Part shown: positions 31,854 through 57,476 of the stretch, piece by piece | Position numbering within the stretch: the first letter of the stretch is position 1 | Layout: the number at the start of each line of letters is the position of its first letter | Origin: Candidatus Daviesbacteria bacterium | GTDB lineage: Bacteria; Patescibacteriota; Microgenomatia; Daviesbacterales; UBA10151 | Length of the DNA: 64,000 bases | Reading direction: 5' to 3' | Assembly: GCA_016195715.1 (NCBI GenBank) | Contig: JACPZA010000026.1 | Span: 20,222-84,221, forward strand | Position numbers and translations under genes: made by a program | Notes under the pieces: model-generated | Told to the model about the DNA's origin: nothing | What the model saw: only the letters and a program-made list of their open reading frames with translations | Database searches by the model: none

Positions 31854-34800
31854 ATGAATACTACACTGCCTAATAATACTTCAAAAAAATTCATAAAGAT
31901 CGGTGAAGCTTCAAAGCTCCTAGGAGTCCACATTGATACTTTGCGAAGATGGGAAGCAAAAGGAAAAATTAAATCGATCAGAACCCCAGGTAGAACTAGA
32001 CTTTACTCTTTTGACCAGATCAAACAGGTCAATCAAGAATCTTTGGCTGAAACAAATCCCCTAACTTTAAACACAGAGCAGTTACTTGATAGAGCTGAAA
32101 GTCAGCCTGAGGTTACAAAAGACTATGATCGAGAAATCCCAGCTGATTTAGATAAATCTAATCAATTGGATCAAATATCACAAAATATATCAAATAACAG
32201 CATCAAACCCACTTTAATCTCAGAAGTGCTGTTTGCTTGTCTAATTTTATTAAGCTTAAGTTCCTACTTTGTGCTTAAGGAGGTAAATGGCCAAAGATCT
32301 TTGATTTTAGGCTTAAAGCAAACTCAAGAAAAGATTGCTAATTTAATTTTTCCCTCTCATTCCTCTAGTCCCATTTCTAAAGATGCAGGGCTAATTGGTT
32401 TAAACCCTAATCTGGTAGCAAGTAAAAATGATCTTAATAAAGGTGCTGTTTTAGCAGCATCAGCTAGCGCTAATTTTTTAGAGTTAAACTCAGACAGCGT
32501 GATTAATGGCAGTTTAGCTGTCAGTTCTGATGCCACTTTTTCTGGTAAAATTACTGCTCCGAATGTTATTTATGGCTTAACTCCAGGTAGTAATATTACT
32601 ATCACACAAGGTCAAAACCCCACAATCTCTGTCAGCTCAATTGTCAGCTCGCTTCAAGGAAGCACCGGAGCAATTAGCTTAGTTGCAGGTACTGATATCT
32701 CAATTTCTGGTTTAACCATCTCTAACTCTTCTACTTTAAGTTCCACTAGAGGTAGAGGTGGCTGTGATAGCTGTATTAAAGACAGCGATGTTGATAACGG
32801 CTTAACTATTTCTTCTTCTGGCTCAGTTGATGCTGGAGCTTTAACTGGAACAATTGCTTCAGGCAGAATCTCTGGATCGTACACTGGAATCACTGGGGTT
32901 GGGACAATTGCAACTGGAGTTTGGAATGGAACAGTCATTGGTCCAACATTTGGCGGGACTGGACTTACTTCTTTTACCACAGGTGATACTTTATATGCAT
33001 CAGCAACTAATACTTTATCAAAATTGGGAATTGGCACGAGTGGTCAAGTTTTAACAGTTTCTTCAGGAATTCCAGCTTGGACAACAATTGGAGCAAGTTC
33101 TTGTCCGACATGTGTACTTACCAATCCCTCATCCTCTCAAACAATTACTAATGCTAGTTCAACTGGCTTTACTATAACTCAAGCATCTACAGCTGGCTCA
33201 GCTGATATTTTTGATGTCACCAATAATGCCGGTACAACAAAGTATCTGCAGATTGATAGCTCTGGAAATGCCAGTTTTGCAGGGACTGTCACCTCTAGCT
33301 CTACACTAACTGCTTCGAATGGTTTAACCCAAACTACTGGAGCATTAACTTTAACCGCAACGTCTGGAACTCTAACTTTATCTGGGTTATCTGCTTCATC
33401 AATAAGTTTTGGATCGAATAATGTTACTTTCACTTCAGGTAATTTTAACACCACCTCAACTGGCATTAACTCAACTGCAGTTGGTGCAACAACTGCCTCA
33501 ACTGGTGCTTTTACTACCCTTTCTGCAACGCCTGGATCAGATACCACTGGATTAACTGTAACTGGAACAAATGTCACTTCAGCAAACTTAGTTTTATTAT
33601 CTGCTAAAAATACCTCAGGCAATATTTTGGCAATCTCTTATCCCTCAGCCGCCACTTTAGCTACATCTGGAACATTTAATGCCCTGGATTTTGATATTAG
33701 AACAAATGTTACAGCTACAAATGCTAATATTTCAGGTGTTACTGTCAAACTTCCAAGTGTTACAGTGAGTTCAGCTTCAACTAAGAATATTCTTGGGTGG
33801 AATTCTAATAACACAACCCAAACCCTGACAACTAGTAACGCTAGCGCTGTTGGAAGCTATATTGGCTATTATGCCAGTAACCCTGCCATTGTCGGTACAT
33901 CTGGTAGCGCCTCAAGCTATGGCTTTAATGCTCTTACTGGTACAATTACTACCACTGGAACTCAAGCAGGATTTTTTGCTGATTTAACAAGTTCAACAGT
34001 CACAACAGCTGGGACTGTTTATGGGTTACTGGTTAACCCACCAACTACCACCTCAGCTGGTGGAACTTATTATGGTGCTAGTATTGGCAATATAACCACT
34101 TCTAATGGAACAGATACAGCTATTAGTATTGGAACAGGTTGGGATGCTGATTTAGCTTTTGTCAGTACTGCACCCAAAATTACCATTGGTAATACTGGTA
34201 CCCTATCTTTTACAGATGGGACTAATACACTGTGTAGCATTGCTGATGCTGGAACCACTGGTAATTTAACTTGTTCTGGAAATATTACTGGTGCAAGTAC
34301 TGGTACTGTTGGTTATTGGTCTAGGTCTGGTACTACTCTGTCTCCTGCTACTTCTGGTGATGCTGTTACTACTTCTGGTAATATCTCCACCTCAGGATCT
34401 GGAACTATTACCTCTGCTTCAACTTTAACTGCTTCTAATGGTTTAACTCTCACTACTGGAGCATTATCTTTAACTGCCACTTCTGGTTCTATTGCTCTAA
34501 CAGGATTTGGTACTACATCAATTACCTCTACCACCACAACAGGTAATATCAATACCTTAGCTGATTCTTCCTTTGCAGTAGCTGCTGCAGCCACAGGTAA
34601 TTTAGTTAATTTAACATTTACTAATGGTTCTACCTCTACCTCTGGCACAGCAACCACCACTGGTTTAAACATTGCAGCCACAAACAATGCTGCTGGTGCT
34701 TCTGGAACTCATGAAACTTATGGCATCAGGTTACAAAATATTGCTGGAACTGCTGGAGCTGGCACACAAAATAACTATGGAGTGAGAATTGGTAATTATG

Positions 34801-37800
34801 GGCAATCAAGTGCAGAGACCTCTTATGGATTATATGTTGATGCCCAATCAGGTTCTGGCACAGCTAATTATGCAGCTATCTTTGCTGGAGGGAATGTTGG
34901 GATAGGTACTACAGCACCTGGTGCCCAGTTAGATATCTTAGCTGCTGCTTCAACTAAAGGCATAAGAGCCCAGAGTAGTGCTGCTTCTGCTAGTTCTGGA
35001 AATGGAGCTGCTGCTCAGAATATTTTAGATGTTTTGGGAGCAACTGGCCAGGAAACAACTGGGACAACAGGTCAAACAGCTGGGGCTGGTGGATCAATCT
35101 TCCTAACTGGAGGACTAGGAGGACAAGCTTCTGGAGCATCAGGATCAAATACTGGAGGACTAGGAGGACAAGTAAGTATAGATGGTGGAGCTGGAGGAGC
35201 TGCTACTAGTGGCACAAGTGGAGCTGGAGGAGGTGTAACAATTGGTGGTGGTAATTCTGATAGTAGTGGTGGGGCTGGAGGAGCTATTAGCATTTCTGGA
35301 GGTTTAGGGCATGGAGCTCAAAATGGTGGGGGTGTTAATATTGTCTCAGGGGATGCCAATGACACAGGTAATGGAGGGTCAATTACTATTACTTCTGGTC
35401 TTGGTGGAGGAACTTCTGGGAATTCTGGCACACTAACTTTAGATACAGGGACTGTTACCTCTGGGACTGTTGGGTCAGTGGTTATTAATACTGGGGGGGT
35501 TCAAGCAGCAGCTTTTAACTCCTCTCAGAACTTAACTTTAAATGGCACAACTATCACAGCCTCTTCCTTAACTACATTAACCACTTCTTCCTCCTTAGCT
35601 TTAAATGGAGCTTCAACTATTACTACCAACCAAGCTTCTTTAACCTTATTTAATGCTACTGCTACTACAGTTAGTGCCTTTGGTGCTGCTACTACTTTAT
35701 CTATGGCTACCTCAAATACAGCTAGTACACTTAATTTAGTGACTGGGACTGGTGGTAATACTATTAATATAGGTTCTGGAACCATTGCTACAGGCAATAC
35801 CCAAACTATTCACTTAGGAGATGCTGCTACAGGTACTGGAAAAGATGTTATCACTATTGGTAATACAAATGGAGCTTCCTCTCTAGCTTTAAATGCAGGT
35901 TCTGGGGGAATAACCCTAACTAATGCTACCACCACTGCTACTACCTTTGCCTCTACTACTACTAATGCTGATAAAATTGCTATTGCTCCCTCAACTGGTG
36001 GGTCAAATTCCTTTACTGCTACTATCTCTTCAGCAGATTTAACAGTAGGAAATCAAACTTTTAACTTCCCAGATCTAGCAGCTGCTACCTCTGCTACTAT
36101 CTGTGTCTCTGGTCAAACCTGTGCATCCTCTGGAACTTTGGGTTATTGGTCTAGGTCTGGTACTACTCTGTCTCCTGCTACAGCAAATGATATAGTTTCC
36201 ATTGCTAACACCACAACCTCAGGAGCAGATTTAGCAGTAACTAACACTGGAATATACACAGGTACTGGACTTGTTAATATCACAGCTAACTCTGCAACAA
36301 CTGGTGATATACTGGCACTCTCTGCTACTGCTTTAACTTCTGGTTCTGAATTGGTTATTACAGGTCCATCTGGTGGGACTGCTGGGGTCACAGATGCTGC
36401 TATTAAACTAACCTCAGATGTTGGTAATATTGGAACATCTAATGGGCTAATATCATCTGCTGCTACTATTGATTCCACTGCAGCTTCTGCTAATGGGATT
36501 AATTTATATTTAACAACCACTAACTCTAATGGGACTAATGCTAACACAGCTTATGGGATATATAACAGCCTGTCTGATGCTATAGCTTTAGGTAATACTA
36601 ATTATGGAATATATAACAATTTATCCAATACTGGGGTAACTTCTTCTAATAAAACAATCTATGGAAATTACTCAACAGTAGCCAATACAGGAGCTACGGG
36701 CGGAACACAAACTACTTATGGTGGTTATTTCTTATCAGATGGAGATAAAGGAGGAACCTCAACAGTTTACGGAGTATACGCACGAGCTGGTAAATATAAT
36801 GGCGCAGGTGGAGGAGATAATAACTATGGAGGCTATTTTGAAGGTTATAATGACTCTGGTACTGGAACTAGTTTATATGGTACATATTCATATGGTCTTG
36901 TTGGTTCAGGTAATGTTCCGAATATATATGGAGCTTATAATTTTGGCAGTTTTGTAGGTTCGGGTGGTAGTGGATCCTCCATGTATGGTGCTTATAATAA
37001 GACTACAAATGATTCAGCTAATTCATTTGGCACAGCATATGGCTCATACAACACCGTAACTGATGGTGGAGCATCAAATATTACAACTGCTTATGCCTCA
37101 TATAACTTAATTGATAATCAAGTTAGTAGTACATACACTACTGCTTACGGCAGTTATATCGGTGTAACATCTAGTGGCACTATTACTACTGGTTATGGAT
37201 TGTATATTAATACAATAGCAGGTTCGACCAATTATGGCCTTTATCAGGCTAGTTCTACTAATAACAATTATTTTGCAGGTAATGTTGGGATTGGAACTGA
37301 CACTACTCCAACTGAAGGGACTTTAACTTTAGCTAGCACTTCTAATACGGTACCAGTGGTTTCTTTAACCAACAACACTGTCACCACATTGGGTGCTGGT
37401 GTTAATACTACTGGTGTATTAGATCTACAATCTACTACTCTAACAACTGGGAACTTTTTGAATATAGAGACAAATGCTTTAACTACTGGTAAAACTGTTA
37501 ATACTACCTCTACTTCTAATGCCTATACTTCAGGTAATTTACTTTATACTGACTTAACTCAATCAGCTGCTACAGGCACTTCTGTCTCTGGCAATATTGG
37601 TTCTATTAGCTTTAATCCAACCTATTCTACTGCTATCACCACTCCTGCTATCTCAGGTAATGTCTTAAATATTGCTAGATCTTCTACTACCAATTCCAGT
37701 TTTGCTTCCACTTTAACAGTTTCTGGAGCAGTTGCTTCAATCTCTGATACCTCTACCCAAACTACTGGCACTTTAACCAATACAGCTAATGTTCTAGCTT

Positions 37801-40800
37801 TAACCCAAAACTACTCCTCTGCTACTGGTAATGTCTTAAGCATTGCTGATTCTGCTACTCATGCTAGTGGAGGTAGTTCTTTGCTTGTTACTGCTAATGC
37901 TTTAACTACAGGTACTGGGGTATCTATTACTTCATCTTCCCTAACCTCTGGTAAGTTAGTCAGTATAACTCCTACCTTTGCTGGATCAGCTGTCACAGGG
38001 TATGGATTATACAATGCTGGAACTGATTCTACAGCTAATGCTAATATAGATTATGGTTATTATGGATCTTTAGCTCTAACAGGTAATGCTGGGAAAACTG
38101 GTTATGGAATCTATTCTACTATTACTAATACCTCAACTACTGCTGCCACTCAATATGCTGGATACTTTAATCTCTCTAATACAGGAGTAGTCACAGCTAC
38201 AGGTGATAATAACTATGGAATATATTCCAGTGCTACCAGAACTGGTTCTACTACAGCAGGGACTACTAATACCTATGGAGGTTACTTTACTACTACTGCA
38301 GATGCTGGTGGAGCATCTACTACTAATGCTTATGGTATCTATGCTACAGCTACTGGTGGGGATAATAATTATGCTGGATATTTTGATGTTGCTAATACTG
38401 GACAGGTATATATAAACTCCACTCTGTCTGGTGGAGCCAGGTCTGTTCCCCAGATGACTATCACTCAAGCCAACGCAGGTAATAGTTCTTCTTCTAATCT
38501 ATTAGAGCTAATTAATTTAGATCAAGATACTGCTCCTGCTCCTTTAGATATAGACAATAGAGCAACATTGCCAACATTTATTAATTTACATAGTAATGCA
38601 GCAGTAGCACTGAGTGGTAGTAGTGCAACCGGCATTAATGTAGATTTAAAAAGTAATTATAGTATAAGCAACGCTACAACTGGCGTTGTGGCATATCAAG
38701 GCACATTACCAAGCAATACTAGTACTTGTTCTGGGTGTACTTTTACTTACCAAGGATTGGAGGTTAGCCAAACTACTCTCTCTCAATCAACTAACGCCTC
38801 AACTCATAACTCTAATTTAGTAGATCTAACCTTACCTAATATTACTCAAACTACAGGTACTATTACTGCTAATGGAGTGCTGGCTACAAATGGTACAATC
38901 ACCACTGCTGGAACTGAGAATTCATTTAAAGGAGTCTTGGGAACTATTACCACTGCTGGTACTCAAAATGGAGTAAATATTGATTTTTCAGGATCCACTA
39001 TAACCACAGCTGGAACTGTTAATGGAGTACTGCTTACCCCACCCACCACCACTTCAACTGGTGGAACTTATAATGGGATAAATATTGGTAATATAACCAC
39101 TTCTAATGGAACAGATACTGCTATTAGTATTGGAACCGGTTGGGATACAGGAATATTAGGAGCAGGTGCACTAACTATTAAGTCAACCTCAGGTGACTTA
39201 GGATTATCAACTGTTACTTCTGGTAATATTACCCTAGCTCCTGCTTCAACAGGTTCTGTTCAGTTAACCTCTGGGGTAACAACTGGAACCACTACATCAT
39301 CAGCTCTTTCCATAGTAGCTAACTCTTTAAGTTCAGGTACTGGTTTCAATATCTCATCTTCTGCTAACAGCCTTACTGGCTCATTAACTAATATTTCTTC
39401 AACTGGTACAACCGCTGGAATCAATGCCAACTCTGCTGGTGGTTCTACTGGAACAGCTCAAGCTATTAGTGTTAGCAATCTAGCTGCTGATGCCAGTAAC
39501 TTCTCTGCTGCTACCTCTATTACTTTTACCAACGTTTCATCTAATACCACTGGTACCAGTGCTGTTAGTGGTTATACCATCATAGGAACCATTAATGCCA
39601 CAGGCGCAAGTGGAGCAAAGACCGCATCAGGAACTTCTGTTGTAGCCCCAACCCTTACTGGTTGTGGATCTGGGACTTCAACCTGTACCTGGAATGGTGT
39701 TGGTTCAAGCTTAACAAATTTGGGAGGAGGCTTTGGTGGATTTACTGAAAATGCCTTTAATGTCAACTCAGCTACTGCTACTTCAGGAACTATTCGAGGT
39801 ATTAATCTTGTTGGCATAGGCTCACCAGGTGCTGGTACTGAAATTGCAATTAACGCTAGTGCTGGCTGGGATACTATTTTAAATGTTGCTGGTGCCTTTA
39901 CCCAAGCTGCCTCTAGTACTGACACTGGAGTCAGCCTGGATTTTTCTAGCATGACTGCTGCTGTGGGTAGTGCTACCAACTTAACTGGAACTACTTTCTT
40001 AACTCCAGCTATCACTGAAACTGGTAACTTTGCTCATACCTATCTTGGCTATGATATTCCAACTACTGGAAATATTATCAATCAAGGAACTTCTACTTTT
40101 GCTTTTACAGGATATGATTTATCGGGTTCTGGAACTGTGACTCAAAACACCGCAGCTGGAACCATTAATTGGCGAGGGGTAAATATTAATCTCCCCGCTA
40201 TTACTCAAACAACAGGAACCATCACAGCGGATGGAGTTAGAGTGTTAATACCAGCTACAGGTTCTATAACTACAGGTGGTACGATGAATGGTATAAATGT
40301 GGTTGCCCCAACCACAAATTCAAATGCTGCTGGAACCCTAAATGGAGTTAATATTGCCAACTTAACTGTAGGAACTGGTGGAACTGGTAATAATGCTTTA
40401 ACTATTGGCTCTGGTTGGGGTAAACAGATTAATGGAAATCAGTTTAGTGTTGATGGCTCTGGAATTTTAACACTAGATTTAGCAACCACTAGCTCAAATG
40501 GAGTTTGTCACACCAACTCAGGAACTGGCACAGCTGAGGTCTTGCTTGATTGTACTGGTACTATTACAGACTATGCTGAGGTTTATGCTACAACTGGCAA
40601 CAGTGAGCCTGGAGATATACTAGCAACCACTGATCAGCCTCTAGTTTTAGACAAATCTAACTCTTCTTACCAACAAAATATAATTGGGGCAATCTCTACT
40701 AATCCAAATGATCCAATTGGACAAACTTTTGCTACTAACCAAAACCCACAACCTATTGGCCTGTCTGGACGTATTCCTATTAAAGTCAGTTTAGAAAATG

Positions 40801-42032
40801 GTCCAATTAAAAAAGGCGATTTATTAACAACCTCTTCAACTTTGGGAGTTGCTATGAAAGCTACTCATGCAGGGATGGTTATAGGCACAGCTTTGGAAGA
40901 TTTTGATGGATCAGTAAAAGTCTCAGCAGATACTCTATCCCAAGAAAATCACAGATTAACAGATCATCCAGATTACCCTGTTTATCACTCTGATCCTGCA
41001 AAATGGCCAGAGGGAGTTGGAAAAATCTCAGTTTTAGCAAGAGTTAGCTTTGCAGATCCAGCAAACTTACTGGCTAGTTTAGCTATCAGTTCAGATGGAA
41101 CTTTAATTACTCATGATTTAACTGTTGATAAAATTACTATAAATTCTAAGCTAGAATTAAATGGTACTTTAGTGGTTAACGGCACAAATGTTGATCCTCA
41201 AGCTTTAATAACTGCTGGAAATTTAGCATCTTCGGTAGATGATTTAAACTCTACCATTGCTACCCAATCTGGTCAGTTAGCAAACTTAAGTTCACAAGTT
41301 GCAGGAGTTGCCACTCAATCTGCAAATCTAGCTCAAAATTTAGCTTCAGAGTCAGCCTCACTTGCTAATTTAAACTCTCAAGTCTCTCAAGTATCCAGTT
41401 CATCTGCGTCTTTAACAACTCAAGTTGCATCAAATTCTGCTCAAATTGCCGCAGTTCAATCAGATTTAGATTTGATTAAATTAAAACTTAACTCAACAGA
41501 CTCTTCTAGCTCTGGTCAGCTAATTAGCTTAAATGTCCAAGAAGCAACAGTCTCTGGGATATTTAGATCACTTGGAGATACCTTCCTAGCTAAAACCAAT
41601 GTAGCTGGGGATATCACCCAAGATGGCACACTGTCAATTGAAGGTGGCAAATCAATTAACGCTTTGCCAACGCTATATTTCCAAAACTCATTAATAGCCG
41701 AAACTGTTGATTTCTTTAATGGTTTAATTACTTTTGATAAAACTGGTAAAGTCACTTTGCAAAAACTAGTCATCCCAGATACCAAATTAGCGACCCTTAA
41801 CTCTGATCCAACTATTGGTTCTGGAAAGATTATTTCTGGACAAACTTCAGTTATCATTAATAATAATCAGGTTAGTTCAACTGCTAAAATCTTTGTCACA
41901 GCCAGAAGTAAGATTGGTTCCCAAGCTTTGGTAGTTGAGTCAGTTAACCCAGGGAATAGCTTTATTGTTAGCTTAGATCATGCACTAGGAAATGATTTAA
42001 TCTTTGATTGGTGGATTGTTGAGACTAAGTAA
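31854..42032 (+). CDS. Giant (3392 aa) membrane protein: cytoplasmic N-terminal MerR-type HTH, single TM, very large Thr/Gly/Ser-rich repetitive extracellular region, coiled coil, conserved C-terminal domain
   Basis: HTH IKIGEASKLLGVHIDTLRRWEAKGKIKSIRTPGRTRLY; TM ISEVLFACLILLSLSSYFVL (aa ~118-140); long internal repeats; Gly-rich block; periodic Y-G repeats; heptad-like repeats near 41200-41500; C-terminus paralogous to the 57477 ORF. Confidence 0.8.
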   Translation: MNTTLPNNTSKKFIKIGEASKLLGVHIDTLRRWEAKGKIKSIRTPGRTRLYSFDQIKQVNQESLAETNPLTLNTEQLLDRAESQPEVTKDYDREIPADLDKSNQLDQISQNISNNSIKPTLISEVLFACLILLSLSSYFVLKEVNGQRSLILGLKQTQEKIANLIFPSHSSSPISKDAGLIGLNPNLVASKNDLNKGAVLAASASANFLELNSDSVINGSLAVSSDATFSGKITAPNVIYGLTPGSNITITQGQNPTISVSSIVSSLQGSTGAISLVAGTDISISGLTISNSSTLSSTRGRGGCDSCIKDSDVDNGLTISSSGSVDAGALTGTIASGRISGSYTGITGVGTIATGVWNGTVIGPTFGGTGLTSFTTGDTLYASATNTLSKLGIGTSGQVLTVSSGIPAWTTIGASSCPTCVLTNPSSSQTITNASSTGFTITQASTAGSADIFDVTNNAGTTKYLQIDSSGNASFAGTVTSSSTLTASNGLTQTTGALTLTATSGTLTLSGLSASSISFGSNNVTFTSGNFNTTSTGINSTAVGATTASTGAFTTLSATPGSDTTGLTVTGTNVTSANLVLLSAKNTSGNILAISYPSAATLATSGTFNALDFDIRTNVTATNANISGVTVKLPSVTVSSASTKNILGWNSNNTTQTLTTSNASAVGSYIGYYASNPAIVGTSGSASSYGFNALTGTITTTGTQAGFFADLTSSTVTTAGTVYGLLVNPPTTTSAGGTYYGASIGNITTSNGTDTAISIGTGWDADLAFVSTAPKITIGNTGTLSFTDGTNTLCSIADAGTTGNLTCSGNITGASTGTVGYWSRSGTTLSPATSGDAVTTSGNISTSGSGTITSASTLTASNGLTLTTGALSLTATSGSIALTGFGTTSITSTTTTGNINTLADSSFAVAAAATGNLVNLTFTNGSTSTSGTATTTGLNIAATNNAAGASGTHETYGIRLQNIAGTAGAGTQNNYGVRIGNYGQSSAETSYGLYVDAQSGSGTANYAAIFAGGNVGIGTTAPGAQLDILAAASTKGIRAQSSAASASSGNGAAAQNILDVLGATGQETTGTTGQTAGAGGSIFLTGGLGGQASGASGSNTGGLGGQVSIDGGAGGAATSGTSGAGGGVTIGGGNSDSSGGAGGAISISGGLGHGAQNGGGVNIVSGDANDTGNGGSITITSGLGGGTSGNSGTLTLDTGTVTSGTVGSVVINTGGVQAAAFNSSQNLTLNGTTITASSLTTLTTSSSLALNGASTITTNQASLTLFNATATTVSAFGAATTLSMATSNTASTLNLVTGTGGNTINIGSGTIATGNTQTIHLGDAATGTGKDVITIGNTNGASSLALNAGSGGITLTNATTTATTFASTTTNADKIAIAPSTGGSNSFTATISSADLTVGNQTFNFPDLAAATSATICVSGQTCASSGTLGYWSRSGTTLSPATANDIVSIANTTTSGADLAVTNTGIYTGTGLVNITANSATTGDILALSATALTSGSELVITGPSGGTAGVTDAAIKLTSDVGNIGTSNGLISSAATIDSTAASANGINLYLTTTNSNGTNANTAYGIYNSLSDAIALGNTNYGIYNNLSNTGVTSSNKTIYGNYSTVANTGATGGTQTTYGGYFLSDGDKGGTSTVYGVYARAGKYNGAGGGDNNYGGYFEGYNDSGTGTSLYGTYSYGLVGSGNVPNIYGAYNFGSFVGSGGSGSSMYGAYNKTTNDSANSFGTAYGSYNTVTDGGASNITTAYASYNLIDNQVSSTYTTAYGSYIGVTSSGTITTGYGLYINTIAGSTNYGLYQASSTNNNYFAGNVGIGTDTTPTEGTLTLASTSNTVPVVSLTNNTVTTLGAGVNTTGVLDLQSTTLTTGNFLNIETNALTTGKTVNTTSTSNAYTSGNLLYTDLTQSAATGTSVSGNIGSISFNPTYSTAITTPAISGNVLNIARSSTTNSSFASTLTVSGAVASISDTSTQTTGTLTNTANVLALTQNYSSATGNVLSIADSATHASGGSSLLVTANALTTGTGVSITSSSLTSGKLVSITPTFAGSAVTGYGLYNAGTDSTANANIDYGYYGSLALTGNAGKTGYGIYSTITNTSTTAATQYAGYFNLSNTGVVTATGDNNYGIYSSATRTGSTTAGTTNTYGGYFTTTADAGGASTTNAYGIYATATGGDNNYAGYFDVANTGQVYINSTLSGGARSVPQMTITQANAGNSSSSNLLELINLDQDTAPAPLDIDNRATLPTFINLHSNAAVALSGSSATGINVDLKSNYSISNATTGVVAYQGTLPSNTSTCSGCTFTYQGLEVSQTTLSQSTNASTHNSNLVDLTLPNITQTTGTITANGVLATNGTITTAGTENSFKGVLGTITTAGTQNGVNIDFSGSTITTAGTVNGVLLTPPTTTSTGGTYNGINIGNITTSNGTDTAISIGTGWDTGILGAGALTIKSTSGDLGLSTVTSGNITLAPASTGSVQLTSGVTTGTTTSSALSIVANSLSSGTGFNISSSANSLTGSLTNISSTGTTAGINANSAGGSTGTAQAISVSNLAADASNFSAATSITFTNVSSNTTGTSAVSGYTIIGTINATGASGAKTASGTSVVAPTLTGCGSGTSTCTWNGVGSSLTNLGGGFGGFTENAFNVNSATATSGTIRGINLVGIGSPGAGTEIAINASAGWDTILNVAGAFTQAASSTDTGVSLDFSSMTAAVGSATNLTGTTFLTPAITETGNFAHTYLGYDIPTTGNIINQGTSTFAFTGYDLSGSGTVTQNTAAGTINWRGVNINLPAITQTTGTITADGVRVLIPATGSITTGGTMNGINVVAPTTNSNAAGTLNGVNIANLTVGTGGTGNNALTIGSGWGKQINGNQFSVDGSGILTLDLATTSSNGVCHTNSGTGTAEVLLDCTGTITDYAEVYATTGNSEPGDILATTDQPLVLDKSNSSYQQNIIGAISTNPNDPIGQTFATNQNPQPIGLSGRIPIKVSLENGPIKKGDLLTTSSTLGVAMKATHAGMVIGTALEDFDGSVKVSADTLSQENHRLTDHPDYPVYHSDPAKWPEGVGKISVLARVSFADPANLLASLAISSDGTLITHDLTVDKITINSKLELNGTLVVNGTNVDPQALITAGNLASSVDDLNSTIATQSGQLANLSSQVAGVATQSANLAQNLASESASLANLNSQVSQVSSSSASLTTQVASNSAQIAAVQSDLDLIKLKLNSTDSSSSGQLISLNVQEATVSGIFRSLGDTFLAKTNVAGDITQDGTLSIEGGKSINALPTLYFQNSLIAETVDFFNGLITFDKTGKVTLQKLVIPDTKLATLNSDPTIGSGKIISGQTSVIINNNQVSSTAKIFVTARSKIGSQALVVESVNPGNSFIVSLDHALGNDLIFDWWIVETK
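34085..34148 (+). repeat. ~64-bp near-identical intragenic repeat, copy 1 (copy 2 at 39087-39150); part of a ~75-aa protein-level repeat (...NITTSNGTDTAISIGTGWD...)
   Basis: aatataaccacttctaatggaacagatac[a/t]gctattagtattggaac[a/c]ggttgggat seen at both sites. Confidence 0.75.
34311..34351 (+). repeat. 41-bp exact direct repeat, copy 1 (copy 2 at 36141-36181), inside the giant gene; encodes GYWSRSGTTLSPAT
   Basis: ggttattggtctaggtctggtactactctgtctcctgctac is identical at both positions. Confidence 0.85.
36141..36181 (+). repeat. 41-bp exact direct repeat, copy 2 (copy 1 at 34311-34351)
   Basis: Identical to 34311-34351. Confidence 0.85.
39087..39150 (+). repeat. ~64-bp near-identical intragenic repeat, copy 2
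   Basis: See copy 1 at 34085-34148. Confidence 0.75.
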
Positions 42033-45357: not shown

Positions 45358-45430
45358 CGCTCCTGGAGGGAATCGAACCCCCGACCAACCGATTAGGACT
45401 CGGCCGTTCTATCCACTGAACTACAGGAGC
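45358..45430 (-). tRNA. tRNA-Arg (anticodon CCU)
   Basis: Hand-folded cloverleaf: acceptor GCUCCUG/CAGGAGC, D-arm GUUC/GAAC, anticodon stem GCCGA/UCGGU with loop GUCCUAA, T-arm GGGGG-UUCGAUU-CCCUC, discriminator G. Confidence 0.8.
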
Positions 45431-46169: not shown

Positions 46170-46244
46170 CGGGGATTAGCGCAGTGGTAGCGCGCACGAT
46201 TCGGGATCGTGAGGTCGACAGTTCAAATCTGTCATCCCCGACCA
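46170..46244 (+). tRNA. tRNA-Pro (anticodon CGG), CCA encoded
   Basis: Acceptor CGGGGAU/AUCCCCG, D-arm GCGC-AGUGGUA-GCGC, anticodon stem CACGA/UCGUG loop UUCGGGA, T-arm GACAG-UUCAAAU-CUGUC, discriminator A, CCA. Confidence 0.85.
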
Positions 46245-49369: not shown

Positions 49370-50296
49370 TTAGCTTGTTAAAAGATAAGCAATTAATGCT
49401 TTTGCTGTATATAACCTATTTTTTGCTTGCTGAATTATTACAGATTGGGGTCCCTCAACTATTTCAGACGTTACTTCCTGCTCTTTATGAACAGGCATAC
49501 AATGCATAAAAATTGCCTCTGGCTTAGCCAAAGATATCAGGTTGGAATTAACTTGATAGGGCTTAAATACAGCTAAACGTATCTTTTCTTCTACCTCTTG
49601 TCCCATGCTAACCCAAGTGTCAGTATAAACCACATCAGCTTCTTTAACAGCTTCTTCCGGATGTTCTGTTTCGGTTACTGTTGCAGCGGTATCTTTAGAT
49701 AAATCCTTGGACACCTCCCTTACCTCTTCTTTCATCCAATATCCTCTTGGTGAAGCCACTTTAAAATTCATCCCAAGTAACGCACAGCCTAAAGCAAGAG
49801 AATGAGGGACATTATTATTTCCATCTCCAATAAAGCCTAGAGTTAAACCTGCAATTTCTCCTTTTATTTCCCAGATAGTCAAAAGATCAGCCAAAGCCTG
49901 GCAAGGATGCTCAAGATCAGAAAGAGCATTTATCACTGGAATTTGAGAGTATTGGCTATATTCTTGTAAAACTTTATGACTAAAAACTCTTGCTACTACC
50001 AAATCAGCCATGCTAGAGATTACTTGAGCAACATCAGATACTGCTTCCCTTTTATCTAAGCCAACTTCTTGTGCTCCAAAGTAAACTGAGTGTCCTCCAA
50101 GTTGGTTCATAGCTATGTCAAAACTTAATTTTGTTCTTAAACTAGGTTTTTCAAATAACATTACCATTTGTTTTCCATCTAGATTAGGCTGAGTTTGAGG
50201 GTTTGTTTTCATATTTTTAGCCAAGGTTAAAACTTGCCAAATTTCTTTAGCCGAGAGATCAGTTATTGATAAAAAATGTTTAATACCTTCATTCAT
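49370..50296 (-). CDS. argF: Ornithine carbamoyltransferase
   Basis: SLRTK (STRTR-like carbamoyl-phosphate site), HCMP (HCLP) motif, 308 aa. Confidence 0.85.
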   Translation of the reverse strand: MNEGIKHFLSITDLSAKEIWQVLTLAKNMKTNPQTQPNLDGKQMVMLFEKPSLRTKLSFDIAMNQLGGHSVYFGAQEVGLDKREAVSDVAQVISSMADLVVARVFSHKVLQEYSQYSQIPVINALSDLEHPCQALADLLTIWEIKGEIAGLTLGFIGDGNNNVPHSLALGCALLGMNFKVASPRGYWMKEEVREVSKDLSKDTAATVTETEHPEEAVKEADVVYTDTWVSMGQEVEEKIRLAVFKPYQVNSNLISLAKPEAIFMHCMPVHKEQEVTSEIVEGPQSVIIQQAKNRLYTAKALIAYLLTS

Positions 50297-51057
50297 ATTT
50301 TTACTTCTGTTCCTAAAAAATTACCTCCAAAAGCTGATGCTAAGTTAGTATGATGACAGATTAGTGTTCTTCCACCTGCAGATGAGACATTGAAAGCCGC
50401 TTCAAGCTTTGGGATCATTCCTGAGCTTACAGCTCCTTGCTTATACATCTGGTTAAAGGCAGATCCCGTTAAATCTCTTATAAGTTCTCCATTTTTATCC
50501 AAGACTCCAGGAACATTAGTGAGGAAAATTACGTTCGCACCCAGCGCTATCGCCACTGCTGATGATGCCAAATCACCATTAATATTTAAAAGTGAATGAG
50601 GATGTTGTATTGCCTGAGCAATTGGGGAAATGATCGGGATTTCTCCTTGTTGCAATCTCTGGTTTATTAAGTCTGCTTTTACAGCTGTTACTCTTCCAAC
50701 ATATCCTAAACTAGGATTTGGAATCTCCCCTTCTAACAGGCTTGAGAATGGCCCGCTTTCACAGACTTTTACTCCATAGCTTGTTAATTTTGAAGTCAAT
50801 CTTTTATTAATTAGGTCTAGTCTTTTCACTACAACAATCAGAGTTTCTGGATCGGTTACCCTTTGTCCGTTTACTTTTATTGGCTTAATTCCCAGTTCCT
50901 CTAAATCTTTGTCAATCTCTGGCCCTCCACCATGAACTACAACCAATGGATGAGCTTGCTGATATAATTTAGCCAAAGATTTTAGTGTTACATCCTCTTC
51001 TTCAAGAGTACTTCCACCTATTTTTATTACTGTTGGTTGTTCTAAATAGTTTTTCAT
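50293..51057 (-). CDS. argB: Acetylglutamate kinase (amino-acid kinase family)
   Basis: VIKIGGS ... VVVHGGGPEI motifs; 254 aa; 4-bp overlap with argF. Confidence 0.8.
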   Translation of the reverse strand: MKNYLEQPTVIKIGGSTLEEEDVTLKSLAKLYQQAHPLVVVHGGGPEIDKDLEELGIKPIKVNGQRVTDPETLIVVVKRLDLINKRLTSKLTSYGVKVCESGPFSSLLEGEIPNPSLGYVGRVTAVKADLINQRLQQGEIPIISPIAQAIQHPHSLLNINGDLASSAVAIALGANVIFLTNVPGVLDKNGELIRDLTGSAFNQMYKQGAVSSGMIPKLEAAFNVSSAGGRTLICHHTNLASAFGGNFLGTEVKI

Positions 51058-51563
51058 GTAACTTCTTTCTCCATAATAAGTTCGTCAAAATATTTTCCTT
51101 CAAAAAAGATTTCATTTTTCTTTTTTCCTATTAATTTAAACCCACAACTTTTGTATAGATCTATTGCCGGTATCTGTGTTTCTGCTACCCATATTTTGAC
51201 TTTTATGATTTCTTCGTGTTTTTTTAAATCTTTGAGAATTTTATTCATAAGCAATTTTCCTACACCTATTCCTCTATATTTTGGCTCAACATAAACACCA
51301 ACAATTGTTGCTATGCTACTTTCTTTGCCAGCGTTTTTGGTGTGTGCGCCTATAATTCCTATAAATTTTTCACTATATTTGGCAAACAACCAAATGTCTC
51401 CTGACTTGGTTAGTTTTTGTTTCCATTCTTCATCTGAATAAGCCACGGCTTGTTCATGCGTGGCTGCGAACGCAATAGGATCAGTTAGTAAGGATTTTAA
51501 TTTTATCTTTTTATAAATCTCCCATTGTTCAGGTTTTAGATTAGTTAGTTTTATTTTTTTCAT
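51054..51563 (-). CDS. GNAT family N-acetyltransferase (possibly a short ArgA-like N-acetylglutamate synthase, given context)
   Basis: GNAT motif A YRGIGVGKLLMNKIL; likely start is MKKIKL at 51563 rather than the ORF-track start at 51638, which would run into the leader terminator. Confidence 0.6.
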   Translation of the reverse strand: MKKIKLTNLKPEQWEIYKKIKLKSLLTDPIAFAATHEQAVAYSDEEWKQKLTKSGDIWLFAKYSEKFIGIIGAHTKNAGKESSIATIVGVYVEPKYRGIGVGKLLMNKILKDLKKHEEIIKVKIWVAETQIPAIDLYKSCGFKLIGKKKNEIFFEGKYFDELIMEKEVT

Positions 51564-51582
51564 ATTTTCCTTTTTTAGCTTT

Positions 51583-51648
51583 AAAAAAGCCCTTGTCTGC
51601 TGATAAACACTTCGATTTAACTCAGTGCTTATTAGCAAACAAGGGCTC
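51583..51648 (-). terminator. Leader terminator of the T-box riboswitch (alternative to the antiterminator)
   Basis: On the minus strand AGCCCUUGUUUGCU...(~36 nt)...AGCAGACAAGGGCU followed by UUUUUU; its 5' arm CCUUGUUU can instead pair with AAACAAGG just upstream of the T-box core. Confidence 0.6.
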
Positions 51649-51929
51649 TCTTATTTGAGGGCGGTGCCACCTTGTTTACCCTACGTAGCCTTGGCGAAGT
51701 AGGGCTTCTCATAAAAAATCCTCCATGTCTGGAGGAGCTTGTTACAAGAATTTCTCTTTAACGCTCCTGTTTCTCTCTTCTGCTAACAGCTTCAAAGAGT
51801 AAACCGACACGCTTGTTGATTTTACAGTTCAACTTCTGTCGTAGTATTTTCTTCGACTTATGCTCAGAACTTACCTACGCGGCTTATCTATTGCGATAGA
51901 TTCAAACGCCTTTAAAAAATATTTAGTTG
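51583..51929 (-). ncRNA. T-box riboswitch leader RNA (tRNA-sensing), upstream of GNAT-argB-argF(-argS); likely Arg-specific
   Basis: Conserved T-box core AAACAAGGUGGCACCGCCCUC (revcomp of 51657-51677; consensus AAUUAGGGUGGNACCGCG); UGGC bulge would pair with a tRNA 3' GCCA (the tRNA-Arg in this window has discriminator G); competing antiterminator/terminator; ~390-bp ORF-free, GC-enriched gap. Confidence 0.6.
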
Positions 51930-51936
51930 TAAAATG

Positions 51937-51964
51937 ATTATATCACAAGCAATTTTTTTGTCAA
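51937..51964 (-). promoter_or_regulatory. Consensus sigma70 promoter (TTGACA-16-TATAAT) driving the T-box leader
   Basis: Minus strand reads gcttatagTTGACAaaaaaattgcttgtgaTATAATcatt; the -35 overlaps the comEC stop codon. Confidence 0.6.
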
Positions 51965-52974
51965 CTATAAGCTTTTTTACTTTCTTGTTTCAAAGCTAAA
52001 AATAAAGCTAAAACAATTAAATAATAACCTATCCAAACTAGGATTGAGGTTTTTGGAAAATAGATGTTGGCAAAACTTAAACTGCCAAAAAAGTTCACTA
52101 TATAAATAAAATAAGTTAGTAGTACTCCAGAAAAAAGTCCAAATATTTTTCCCAAAGTTAAACTAATCAACCCAAAACTTAAAGCTACAATTCCTCCCAT
52201 CATGATAAATGACACAGTCCATAAAACTAAAACATTAACTAACAATCCAATTAAGCTAAATTGATGAAAATTGGCAGCAATAATTGGCCAAGTTAAAGCT
52301 TGAGCACAAAATGAGACAATAAGATCCTGTTTTATAATGTCTGGCAAGAAATTTATTCTATTTTCCAGTTCTGGAGCCACTATTACTACTCCCACAGTTG
52401 CCAAAATTGAGAGCTGAAAGGAGATGGAAAGTAACCAATTTGGGTTATAAATAAGCATTAAAAGTCCAGTTAGAATTAAGATCCATGGACTTTCTTTTTC
52501 TCTACCAAAAAATTGAGCGATCGATGAAAAACCAACCATTAGAGCTGCTCTAATAACTGGAACTTGCAACCCAGTCAGTACTGCATAAAACAAACTAGCT
52601 AGCAAAGATAAAGCTAAAGTTTTTCTTCTGCCTAAAATTGAAGCTAAGCTCATGATAAACCCAGAAACTAAAGTTAAATTCTGACCAGAAACCACCACAA
52701 TATGAATGGTTGAAGTTTTTCTTAAATTATTATTAAAATAGCCCGGTAAGTCGCTTTTTTCTCCAAGCAAAATTCCAGAAAGTAGTGGCGCTTGAGGCTG
52801 GGGCAAAATTTCTGAGATGGTATTTGCTAGTTTGAGCCTAAAAGGCAATAGATATTTGGCAATACTTTCAGTTTCTGGATCTTGATATTTTTTGTCCAAC
52901 CCACCAATTTGAGTAACTCTAAAGATAAAAATTAAAGTAAATAAAATCAAAACCAAGCCAAAAGTCTTTCTCAA
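51961..52974 (-). CDS. comEC: ComEC/Rec2-like DNA internalisation channel, membrane competence domain only (no C-terminal metallo-beta-lactamase domain)
   Basis: Multi-TM; TSTIHIVVVSGQNLTLVSGF matches the ComEC signature (SHLLAISGLHV-like). Confidence 0.6.
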   Translation of the reverse strand: MRKTFGLVLILFTLIFIFRVTQIGGLDKKYQDPETESIAKYLLPFRLKLANTISEILPQPQAPLLSGILLGEKSDLPGYFNNNLRKTSTIHIVVVSGQNLTLVSGFIMSLASILGRRKTLALSLLASLFYAVLTGLQVPVIRAALMVGFSSIAQFFGREKESPWILILTGLLMLIYNPNWLLSISFQLSILATVGVVIVAPELENRINFLPDIIKQDLIVSFCAQALTWPIIAANFHQFSLIGLLVNVLVLWTVSFIMMGGIVALSFGLISLTLGKIFGLFSGVLLTYFIYIVNFFGSLSFANIYFPKTSILVWIGYYLIVLALFLALKQESKKAYS

Positions 52975-56507: not shown

Positions 56508-57476
56508 AAGTTTTTGAAGCTAAACTTCATCTAATTCTATTCTAGCACTTTCAAGTTCAATTTCAAATATAACTTATAACATTTTTTTATTTCATAATTA
56601 TAAAACCCTATAATTTAATAGATATTAGTAAATTTTTCTACTTATTCACTTTTCCACAATACCTATCCAAATAGATCAATAAGTACTTATTTAATTACCG
56701 CATGAATCTATTACTTTTTCTCTTTTTATTCAAGTTCTTAATAAATTAATACTAAATATATTTATCTATATCAAATAATATTATATTTTGTTTCACAGCT
56801 TATATGAAAATATTTGTGAAAAACATAATCCTATAAAACATTTAGCGTTGTTTTTAAACTTACAAGCATAGCTATAAATCTTATAATATATTTATTTGAG
56901 ATATTTCTTATTTATTATAGTATTTTTAAACTTTTTTATTTTTTTTAAAAATTATCCTAAATATTTTCAAATAAAATACTAGTTAGGTTACTCTTTTTTG
57001 ATTATTTTGGAGCATTTTTGGGGACATTTGACTATTTTTTGACCATTTTCAGGCTTTTTTCCTATAGTTTACTAAAATTAGCGATGAATTAGTTTAAATG
57101 CTAAGTGATTTTTTTAACAATTTAGCCTTTTATAACAATCTATTCTTAGATTAATTTATTGAATTTTTTAGTGTTTTTATAAGGACAATCTAGATTTATA
57201 AATAAAGTTATTTAACTTAAGTTATTTAATCAATTAATAGCCATATTTTAATAAAAATAAACTAAATCAAGATCTATCTAAATTAGCTTTTGCTTTAAAA
57301 AATTGAAGCTAAATTCTTGTGATTGGAGAAGATTAATTAAACCTGCTTTATGGTAATGTCTATTAAAAATTTTCCTAAGATTCGGTATTTAAAACTTTAA
57401 GTTGATCTATTGACAAGCTGTTCAATTTTTGCAACATTAGATATACTAATTATTTCCTAACTTTTTCCTAATTTTT
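56508..57476. other. ~970-bp extremely AT-rich ORF-free intergenic region between divergent leuS and the second giant HTH gene
   Basis: No ORF in any frame; long A/T runs; near-DnaA-box-like TTTTCCACA and TATCCAAAT around 56650-56670, neither a strong match. Confidence 0.5.

Follow-up and report, generated by a model that had tools for sequence, protein, structure and literature searches.

A predicted arginine-specific T-box leader with an ultrashort Stem I upstream of GNAT-argB-argF in Candidatus Daviesbacteria

A gap at positions 51964-51564 of a contig from a Candidatus Daviesbacteria bacterium (JACPZA010000026.1, assembly GCA_016195715.1) lies directly ahead of genes for a GNAT acetyltransferase, ArgB and ArgF, raising the question of whether a T-box controls these genes and, if so, which tRNA it reads and by what structure. 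The window, meaning the whole 64-kb stretch of this contig that was analyzed, supplies the numbering for all leader coordinates given here, which lie on its minus strand. We conclude that 51964-51583 is very probably an arginine (Arg)-specific T-box leader governing the read-through of transcription into GNAT-argB-argF and, probably, further into argS, a metallophosphoesterase gene and ndk. This conclusion is carried by the sequence elements and folds of the leader, by covariation in Stem I, Stem II, a pseudoknot and a helix termed H4 across sibling leaders, and by a correlation between the codon displayed and the genes downstream, all of which are directly observed. The original prediction had named a T-box sensing tRNA-Arg. 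The architecture is not that of a standard Firmicute-type leader, as Stem I is ultrashort and the Rfam model misplaces the elements, and the leader belongs to an unusual and apparently undescribed class in the Candidate Phyla Radiation (CPR) without the long arm that binds the tRNA elbow.

A T-box discriminator and a competing terminator

The T-box core AAACAAGGUGGCACCGCCCUC at 51677-51657 is the sole such core in the window, where the core motif AAACAAGGUGGCACCGCC occurs once, and it is present as first described. The surrounding antiterminator (51676-51638, -10.4 kcal/mol) folds into exactly the expected arrangement of helix A1 (AACAAGG/CCUUGUU), a 7-nt bulge of the form UGGNACC (UGGCACC, 51669-51663) and helix A2 (GCCCUC...GAGAGC). 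Directly upstream of the T-box sequence, at 51709-51676, a purine string AGAAG (51709-51705) is followed by Stem III (CCCUAC...GUAGGG, 51704-51679) and UAA, giving AGAAG-CCCUAC..GUAGGG-UAA-ACAAGG with a fold of -13.3 kcal/mol (z = -2.6). The arrangement 5′-RRRNG-Stem III-AA-3′ is a published T-box signature (PMC7778990), and this canonical discriminator bears out the earlier T-box call.

The 3′ strands of A2 and A1 are re-used by an intrinsic terminator at 51653-51583, which consists of a hairpin at 51653-51589 (-41.8 kcal/mol, z = -10.9) and a run of six U residues at 51588-51583. Antiterminator and terminator are therefore mutually exclusive, as had been proposed, with -10.4 kcal/mol for the former set against -41.8 kcal/mol for the latter; the terminator tail had been read as GGGCU plus U6 and is in fact GGGC plus U6. 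The GNAT start codon, placed about 20 nt past the U-run in the original prediction, is an ATG at 51563, 19 nt after it, and the GNAT ribosome-binding site AAGGAAAA lies unpaired 10-20 nt downstream of the U-run. The fold of the whole leader is far more stable than those of shuffled sequences (z = -9.4).

Transcription would start from a sigma-70-type promoter at 51964-51937, found by a promoter scan and composed of TTGACA (51964-51959), a 16-nt spacer and a TG-extended TATAAT (51942-51937). The hexamers match the consensus at 12 of 12 positions, so the earlier promoter assignment stands and gains the TG extension. The start of transcription is predicted near 51930, about 20 nt ahead of Stem I, and the siblings are laid out likewise, with 20-30 nt separating promoter and Stem I.

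Sibling leaders share a 5′ domain with the window

Siblings were retrieved by the discriminator alone, with the pattern GGTGGCACCGCC-N6-30-GCCCTTGTT run over a metagenome collection. Among the 72 matches, about 30 fell on low-GC contigs, each with a complete A1/bulge/A2 unit, a terminator with U-run and a downstream start codon; the high-GC matches were chance occurrences inside coding sequence. These siblings have a 5′ domain, absent from the retrieval pattern, in common with the window leader. The anatomy of the class could be read from about 25 of them (Candidatus Daviesbacteria/Patescibacteria). In the family, Stem I is a 5-7 bp hairpin on a K-turn-like base (GC-GUUGA...GGAGC) whose terminal loop ends in a triplet, a purine and A; Stem II has a loop that ends in a purine string (AAAAGUA or AAAAUA) and abuts the next element directly; this is a compact H-type IIA/B pseudoknot in which ACYGUAAAA is the F-box equivalent; and helix H4 (GCGUGUCGG-loop-CGGAGCGC) has, depending on the member, a GNRA tetraloop or a large insertion at its apex. 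Many members then carry an internal module, in which a small hairpin precedes a GC-rich one with U5-7 inside a longer pairing of segments X and Z, before the canonical A1/bulge/A2 discriminator and terminator. The window leader matches this anatomy element by element.

The 5′ domains of 11 leaders, the window leader not among them, served to build a covariance model, R1. Over both strands of the 64 kb, R1 ranked the window leader first (51911-51784, 23.5 bits, E about 7e-4), starting exactly at 51911, and this score is conservative because the H4 3′ strand was misplaced inside an insertion peculiar to the window. R1 also matched one further leader (L103), and it gave no match among the high-GC loci or the leaderless Daviesbacteria argS loci. 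As to the hosts, the ArgF and CarA proteins of locus L110 are from Daviesbacteria and the TrpE of L102 is from the 'Patescibacteria group'.

Homology searches from the downstream genes yielded less and showed how seldom this lineage has been sampled. The GNAT has three homologs among 5.8 billion proteins and, identical copies aside, the closest relatives of ArgB share 60% identity and come from contigs of 1-2 kb; GNAT and ArgB searches returned only identical copies, a truncated leader at L083, and leaderless relatives with other gene orders. The L083 leader is orthologous (its GNAT is 71% identical) and retains both the UGGCACC core and the terminator, the upper stem of which has changed, and its 5′ end is cut off. 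An ArgB scan of a genome collection gave 80 best loci, all from Dehalococcoidia at 37-45% identity, with no T-box core near argB; these loci are uninformative because they are too distant.

The specifier codon lies in the terminal loop of an ultrashort Stem I

Stem I occupies only 30 nt (51910-51881) and folds as predicted, with a GGC/GCC base helix, a K-turn-like GUUUGAA internal loop and a 5-6 bp helix AUCUA(U)/(A)UAGAU. Its position, spacing and shape match those of 20 sibling leaders with different helix sequences, and in all 21 leaders a short hairpin takes the place of the long Stem I with an AG bulge and a distal loop, the interdigitated T-loop platform for the tRNA elbow. At the base, the siblings have the K-turn-compatible GC-GUUGA...GGAGC, while the window has GGC-GUUUGAA...AUAA-GCC with A-A in place of the siblings' G-A.

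The terminal loop presents U-CGC-AA (51896-51891), in which CGC (51895-51893), an Arg codon followed by A (51892), is the apparent specifier; siblings likewise have a codon, a purine and A. The codon matches the regulated genes and stands in the terminal loop rather than the usual internal loop. A second CGC at 51881-51879, 12 nt downstream, is favored by the MAFFT alignment and would also specify Arg; we prefer the first because of its spacing from GCGUUUG and the GGC/GCC base helix. The choice of CGC also fits a report that the S-turn of Stem II favors C as the third codon base (PMC7583486).

The assignment to Arg rests on the siblings, in which the loop triplet tracks the downstream genes. 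The loop GU-CGC-GA precedes genes for a GNAT and argininosuccinate lyase (ArgH) in L095, for a GNAT, ArgH and ArgG in L124, and for a small protein, ArgF, an OTCase-like protein and CarA in L110. Loops ending in UGG-A/G, with the tryptophan (Trp) codon, precede TrpS in L090, L120 and L127, TrpE-TrpG in L096, L102, L103, L111, L130, L159 and L160, and a TrpB-like enzyme in L155. Across these leaders, as judged from sequence, CGC goes with arginine and UGG with tryptophan. A loop triplet for another amino acid would have counted against the earlier proposal of tRNA-Arg sensing; the triplet found is CGC, and the codon-gene correlation supports that proposal.

The AGA triplets that had been suggested as the specifier region are ruled out, as they lie within a non-conserved, window-specific insertion in H4 where siblings have a GNRA tetraloop. 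The segment taken for the Stem I region, AGCAGAAGAGAGAAACAGGAGC, is the apical insertion and 3′ strand of this helix downstream of the pseudoknot.

Three UGG leaders precede genes of other kinds, encoding a radical-SAM protein (L146), an Asp/Glu racemase-family protein (L114) and a B3/4-domain protein (L109), which may have unrecognized tryptophan-related functions. Behind two Arg-type leaders, L091:1095-1295(+) and L110:5412-5642(-), the first open reading frame (ORF) encodes 67-77 amino acids (MVERIE...) without a Pfam match, and in L110 this small ORF lies directly ahead of argF.

Which tRNA would read CGC was considered next to the one tRNA-Arg that the original prediction had put forward. 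The tRNA-Arg(CCU) at 45358-45430 has G73 and decodes AGG; it is unable to pair with CGC, and this anticodon mismatch rules it out as the effector. Its G73 bears only indirectly on the UGGC/G73 match. Its gene encodes no CCA, G73 being followed by CAA. Together with a tRNA-Pro(CGG) at 46170-46244 it flanks an ORF of 208 amino acids without a Pfam match, and the same tRNA-Arg/tRNA-Pro pair follows ndk in L163.

Stem II, the pseudoknot and helix H4 are conserved

Stem II (51879-51840) has a closing helix CGUAG/CUACG and an enlarged loop ending in the purine string GAAGAAAAUA, and it folds in isolation. An initial test that allowed pairing partners anywhere within 75 nt did not discriminate (74/500 shuffles), and a local-hairpin test was used instead: in 11 of 12 leaders a local hairpin lies 0-1 nt from the pseudoknot (mean z = -3.2), with differing helices. 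The pseudoknot that follows at 51839-51815 is of the H type (ACAG-A-A-GUUGA-A-CUGU-AAAA-UCAAC) and corresponds to Stem IIA/B. It contains the F-box-like ACUGUAAAA; the F-box-like sequences ACUGUAAAA and ACCGUAAAA compare with CCGUUA and CCGUCA of PMC7583486. A purine-rich S-turn region in Stem II and an F-box-bearing IIA/B pseudoknot are both present in the leader.

Covariation supports these helices. Pseudoknot helix S1 has an A-U pair in seven sequences where five have G-C, and S2 reads GUUGA/UCAAC in the window, UUUGG/CCAAA in L091, UUUGGA/UCCAAA in L095 and GUUG/CAAC in L124, shrinking to only 2-4 bp in the Trp-type group. Downstream, H4 (51813-51760; AGCGUGUCGG ... CAGGAGCGUU) has a conserved UGU/GAG interior and, in the window, an apical hairpin insertion (51799-51775, given as 34 nt) where L091, L095, L146 and L155 have a GNRA tetraloop. 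Within H4, 99% of alignment cells are paired and three pairs show changes on both sides. For S1 and H4 together, in an alignment of 12 sequences, 96.5% of cells are paired and 18 are changed on both sides, compared with 6.6 +/- 2.4 in shuffles (0/500 reaching this count), and controls slid along the alignment gave 18-46% pairing. Formal pair counts were limited to S1 and H4 because the MAFFT alignments (A2 and A3) mis-register Stem I between Arg and Trp types and set S2 off by one column; S2 and Stem II were tested by script.

The textbook T-box has no counterpart of H4. Its core GUGUCGG/CGGAGC is invariant across the window and L091-L155, with conserved G-A and U-G in the interior, and its apex tolerates either a GNRA tetraloop or insertions of 20-34 nt, a pattern suggestive of a tertiary or tRNA contact through the body of the helix.

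An internal hairpin and U-run may act as a pause

Between H4 and Stem III, a terminator scan detected an internal module (51750-51706) composed of a GC hairpin (UCCUCCA-GACA-UGGAGGA, 51736-51719) and U6 (51718-51713), enclosed in a pairing of X with Z (UUCUUGUAA/UUAUGAGAA); with the X/Z pairing included it forms a 19-bp helix of -18.7 kcal/mol (z = -4.4). By strict criteria a hairpin/U-run module is present in 8 of 21 leaders with unrelated stem sequences, where 0.01 would be expected from shuffles. It is missing in the otherwise similar L095, L111, L114 and L146 and in the minimal Trp leaders, and it is therefore dispensable.

The module could be terminator-like or pause-like, and we favor a pause that compensates for the missing elbow platform. 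This preference follows from analogy, because tRNA anchoring in the glyQS T-box reportedly benefits from programmed pauses (PMC13001445) and because fast tRNA capture through the elbow platform is thought necessary for transcriptional T-boxes (PMC7583486). An unlikely alternative is that the hairpin and U6 (51736-51713) are a true first terminator, overcome only after the decoding domain has captured a tRNA and H4, X and Z have adopted alternative pairings, such that anticodon recognition and then charge sensing would each gate one of two successive terminators. The recurrence of GC hairpins with at least five U's at the same place, on unrelated stems, would be expected under such a scheme, as would the resemblance of the internal modules to the final terminators of the same leaders, and alternative pairings are available, in that AGGAGC in the 3′ strand of H4 could pair with GCUCCU (51739-51734), and X with either W or Z. 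However, the pairing proposed to disrupt the internal hairpin is not conserved: GGAGC/GCUCC, tried as an anti-terminator between H4 and the internal hairpin, is missing from L135 and L155. The U-run is also partly paired in the extended fold, much like a long Stem III, and the absence of the module from similar leaders speaks against an obligatory first checkpoint.

Proposed mechanism and its weak points

We propose that transcription starts about 20 nt upstream of the very short Stem I, whose terminal loop would offer CGC to the anticodon of tRNA-Arg (ICG or GCG). With no distal arm to clamp the elbow, the Stem II purine string together with the IIA/B pseudoknot would presumably buttress anticodon binding, as they do in the ileS T-boxes of Actinobacteria, in which a truncated Stem I is compensated by Stem II and the pseudoknot (PMC7583486). 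The mid-leader GC hairpin and U6 would most likely pause RNA polymerase, or terminate it leakily, giving the tRNA time before the discriminator is made. An uncharged tRNA could then pair its 3′ G73-CCA with the UGGC of the bulge, stack on Stem III and A1, and stabilize the weak antiterminator, leading to read-through; with a charged tRNA, the far more stable terminator would form and transcription would stop at the U6 of 51588-51583. In this scheme we infer the tRNA binding, the identity of the tRNA with its discriminator base and the pause role of the internal hairpin.

Several points weigh against the proposal. RF00230 gave 29.9 bits (E = 8.7e-5), below its gathering score of 93, and only when a 651-nt region was scanned alone; there was no match at the gathering threshold or in an E-value scan of the whole window, and in these last two scans the refuting outcome named in the original prediction, no cmscan match, formally occurred. 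The window's specifier loop has 1 nt fewer than that of the other Arg-type leaders, and in the RNAfold structure it is closed down to 4 nt. Taken singly, the 5′ elements are thermodynamically unremarkable (z of -0.6 to -2). The data include only four other full-length Arg-type leaders, and the one close ortholog, L083, is truncated. No tRNA-Arg(ACG or GCG) able to read CGC, whose base 73 could be set against UGGC, was found in the window or in any locus collected. Finally, precedent gives no guarantee that such a class works, because transcriptional T-boxes generally need a long Stem I (PMC7583486).

The failed Rfam test is uninformative, however, because the whole sibling class is sub-threshold: 0 of 20 unique sibling loci reached the RF00230 gathering score, and in permissive mode one of eight gave a match, at 27 bits. 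The 3′ half of the RF00230 alignment, covering Stem III and the T-box, is convincing, while the 5′ half is mis-registered, with a 'Stem I' of 23 nt versus 70 in the model and a 40-nt insertion. We rejected this 5′ alignment, in which 'Stem I' is the IIA/B pseudoknot and 'Stem II' is the window-specific H4 insertion. Because the discriminator, specifier, Stem II, pseudoknot and Stem III are all present, we class the leader as a T-box despite its Rfam score.

Two readings that dispense with the tRNA are very improbable. Leader-peptide attenuation would have ribosomes stalling at the Arg codons of a 26-codon ORF, MRSPTSPRLRRVNKVAPPSNKRALVC, and thereby setting the choice between terminator and antiterminator. 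The ORF has 5 Arg codons and begins at an AUG (51711) six nt after a Shine-Dalgarno-like GGAGGA, it crosses Stem III and the antiterminator to stop in the 5′ arm of the terminator, and the region has a weak Phe_leader-like Rfam match (E = 2.2). Yet an attenuator of this kind should show a conserved short ORF, rich in codons for the regulating amino acid and placed so as to control alternative hairpins, and the siblings do not conserve this one: the AUG behind their U-run starts an ORF of 2 codons in L091, of 6 codons in L110 and of 17 codons in L155, a Trp leader whose ORF has no Trp codon, and L096, L124 and L102 have no such ORF. GGAGGA is sequestered as the 3′ arm of the internal hairpin. 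The logic would also appear reversed for a biosynthetic operon, as a stall at R8-R11 would cover A1 and the bulge and cause termination in starvation, and full translation would cover the terminator arm and allow read-through when Arg is plentiful.

That the region is a degenerate or non-tRNA element, made up of a comEC terminator region and a constitutive arg promoter with a functionless likeness to a T-box, would accord with the sub-threshold Rfam score and with a comEC stop codon that overlaps the -35 hexamer and is followed by two terminator-like hairpins, but this reading is scarcely credible and already strongly disfavored, as the promoter stands upstream of both hairpins, which therefore act on its transcripts, comEC abuts argS without such a region in other Daviesbacteria, and other organisms retain the 5′ domain, with covarying helices, upstream of arg and trp genes.

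Relation to known T-boxes

The T-box reading places the leader between two described classes. With class I transcriptional T-boxes (RF00230; Bacillus subtilis tyrS and glyQS) it shares the UGGNACC bulge between A1 and A2, RRRNG-Stem III-AA, a competing intrinsic terminator with U-run, a specifier matching the pathway, Stem II, a IIA/B pseudoknot with an F-box-like sequence and, possibly, a K-turn-like Stem I base. Unlike them, it lacks the AG bulge and the distal loop, its Stem I being a mere 5-6 bp hairpin that carries the specifier in its terminal loop, and it has an extra conserved H4 after the pseudoknot, an internal hairpin with U-run, and an Rfam score of 29.9 bits versus 93, its siblings likewise being sub-threshold. 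With the actinobacterial ileS T-boxes of the translational class II (Mycobacterium and Nocardia; Sherwood 2015, cited in PMC7583486) it shares a truncated Stem I, a terminal-loop specifier, no elbow contact, a retained Stem II and IIA/B pseudoknot and a codon ending in C. Those leaders sequester the Shine-Dalgarno sequence, whereas in the window a -42 kcal/mol terminator with U6 is present and the ribosome-binding site of GNAT stays unpaired; of the class II traits, the leader shows the ultrashort Stem I together with Stem II and IIA/B, and it does not show sequestration without a terminator. Class II is for Ile and Actinobacteria, while the leaders described here are for Arg and Trp and from CPR/Patescibacteria. 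In Actinobacteria, truncation of Stem I has been linked with control at translation, which is slower (PMC7583486), and the TBDB class II model was searched in Actinobacteria only.

The glyQS-type minimal T-boxes, which lack Stem II and IIA/B, have a parallel in five minimal Trp leaders of about 130 nt that lie upstream of trpS or trpE on CPR-like contigs: L120:7512-7937(-), L127:2088-2220(-), L159:309-700(-), L160:1121-1519(+) and L093:6601-6998(+). These consist of an ultrashort Stem I with UGG, a linker of about 20 nt containing AGAGUAUAAU, and the discriminator, without Stem II, pseudoknot, H4 or Stem III. The glyQS type keeps a long Stem I with a distal platform, in contrast to the short hairpin of the CPR minimal leaders, and the window leader differs from both in retaining Stem II and IIA/B.

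Arg-specific T-boxes of Firmicutes are canonical long-Stem-I leaders recognized by RF00230. They resemble the window leader in their Arg specifier and in placing arginine biosynthesis, argS or both under uncharged tRNA-Arg, and differ from it in architecture and lineage, argS having apparently joined secondarily in the window through a cassette insertion. Vitreschak et al. (2008) reportedly described them upstream of argS and, in Clostridioides difficile, upstream of arginine biosynthesis genes.

We tentatively suggest, as a possibility on which we remain somewhat doubtful, that CPR/Patescibacteria (Daviesbacteria and relatives) carry their own class of transcription-terminating T-box without an elbow platform, in which a Stem I of 5-6 bp shows the specifier in its terminal loop, Stem II and Stem III are also missing from the smallest members, at about 130 nt, and many members compensate kinetically through a hairpin/U-run pause or first terminator. 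If so, elbow contact would not be a requirement for co-transcriptional tRNA sensing, and the class, being invisible to RF00230, would be missing from current T-box censuses. The combination of an ultrashort Stem I with strong intrinsic terminators would challenge the rule that transcriptional T-boxes need the elbow clamp for quick capture (PMC7583486). The RF00230 gathering score misses the whole class, and a dedicated covariance model is therefore needed. With lengths of roughly 130-330 nt, its members are natural minimal scaffolds on which tRNA sensing could be studied or engineered, and the family would put T-box regulation, along with regulated arginine and tryptophan biosynthesis, in CPR bacteria, which are usually viewed as metabolically minimal. 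No paper that connects T-boxes to the Candidate Phyla Radiation or Patescibacteria came up in full-text searches, the coverage of which is incomplete.

The regulated genes and their surroundings

Downstream of the leader, the minus strand carries GNAT (51563-51054; Pfam/NCBIfam), argB (51057-50293; TIGR00761, 178 bits versus a cut-off of 151), argF, encoding ornithine carbamoyltransferase (50296-49370; NF001986, 387 bits versus a cut-off of 306), and, 61 bp further on, argS (49308-47608; Pfam/NCBIfam). The regulated genes thus span 51563-47608, and the metallophosphoesterase gene and ndk follow argS with no gaps. Neither a terminator nor a good promoter was predicted in the 61-bp gap between argF and argS, in keeping with the earlier view that the leader controls GNAT-argB-argF and possibly argS.

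In other Daviesbacteria (L163, L164, L166 and L167) the order is leuS, an ORF of 144 amino acids, comEA, comEC, argS, metallophosphoesterase and ndk, with argS abutting comEC and no leader. The window has the same backbone with leader-GNAT-argB-argF (49370-51964) inserted between comEC and argS, and this insertion upstream of argS suggests that argS probably came under T-box control secondarily. There are hints that the cassette was acquired, in that the closest relatives of ArgB outside the lineage are from Dehalococcoidia at about 45% identity. An ArgS identical to that of the window is deposited under Candidatus Daviesbacteria, and relatives of ArgS at 58-66% are from Daviesbacteria or Patescibacteria.

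One further contig, L082 (GCA_016178845.1, JACOSN010000515.1), from a metagenome-assembled genome labeled 'Sphingobacteriales', is 99.9% identical to window positions 50265-52827, from comEC through argB. About 30 nt inside argF the two sequences part, and L082 continues with convergent genes for an aminotransferase and a prephenate dehydratase; it represents either a structural variant or a contig that is chimeric or mis-binned. Its 'Sphingobacteriales' label is at odds with the Daviesbacteria assignment of an identical ArgS.

Elsewhere in the window, a gap of about 970 nt upstream of leuS (56508-57476), without long ORFs, contained no T-box core, no R1 match and no Rfam match at E <= 1. On the plus strand, positions 31854-42032 are taken up by a single ORF of 3392 amino acids.

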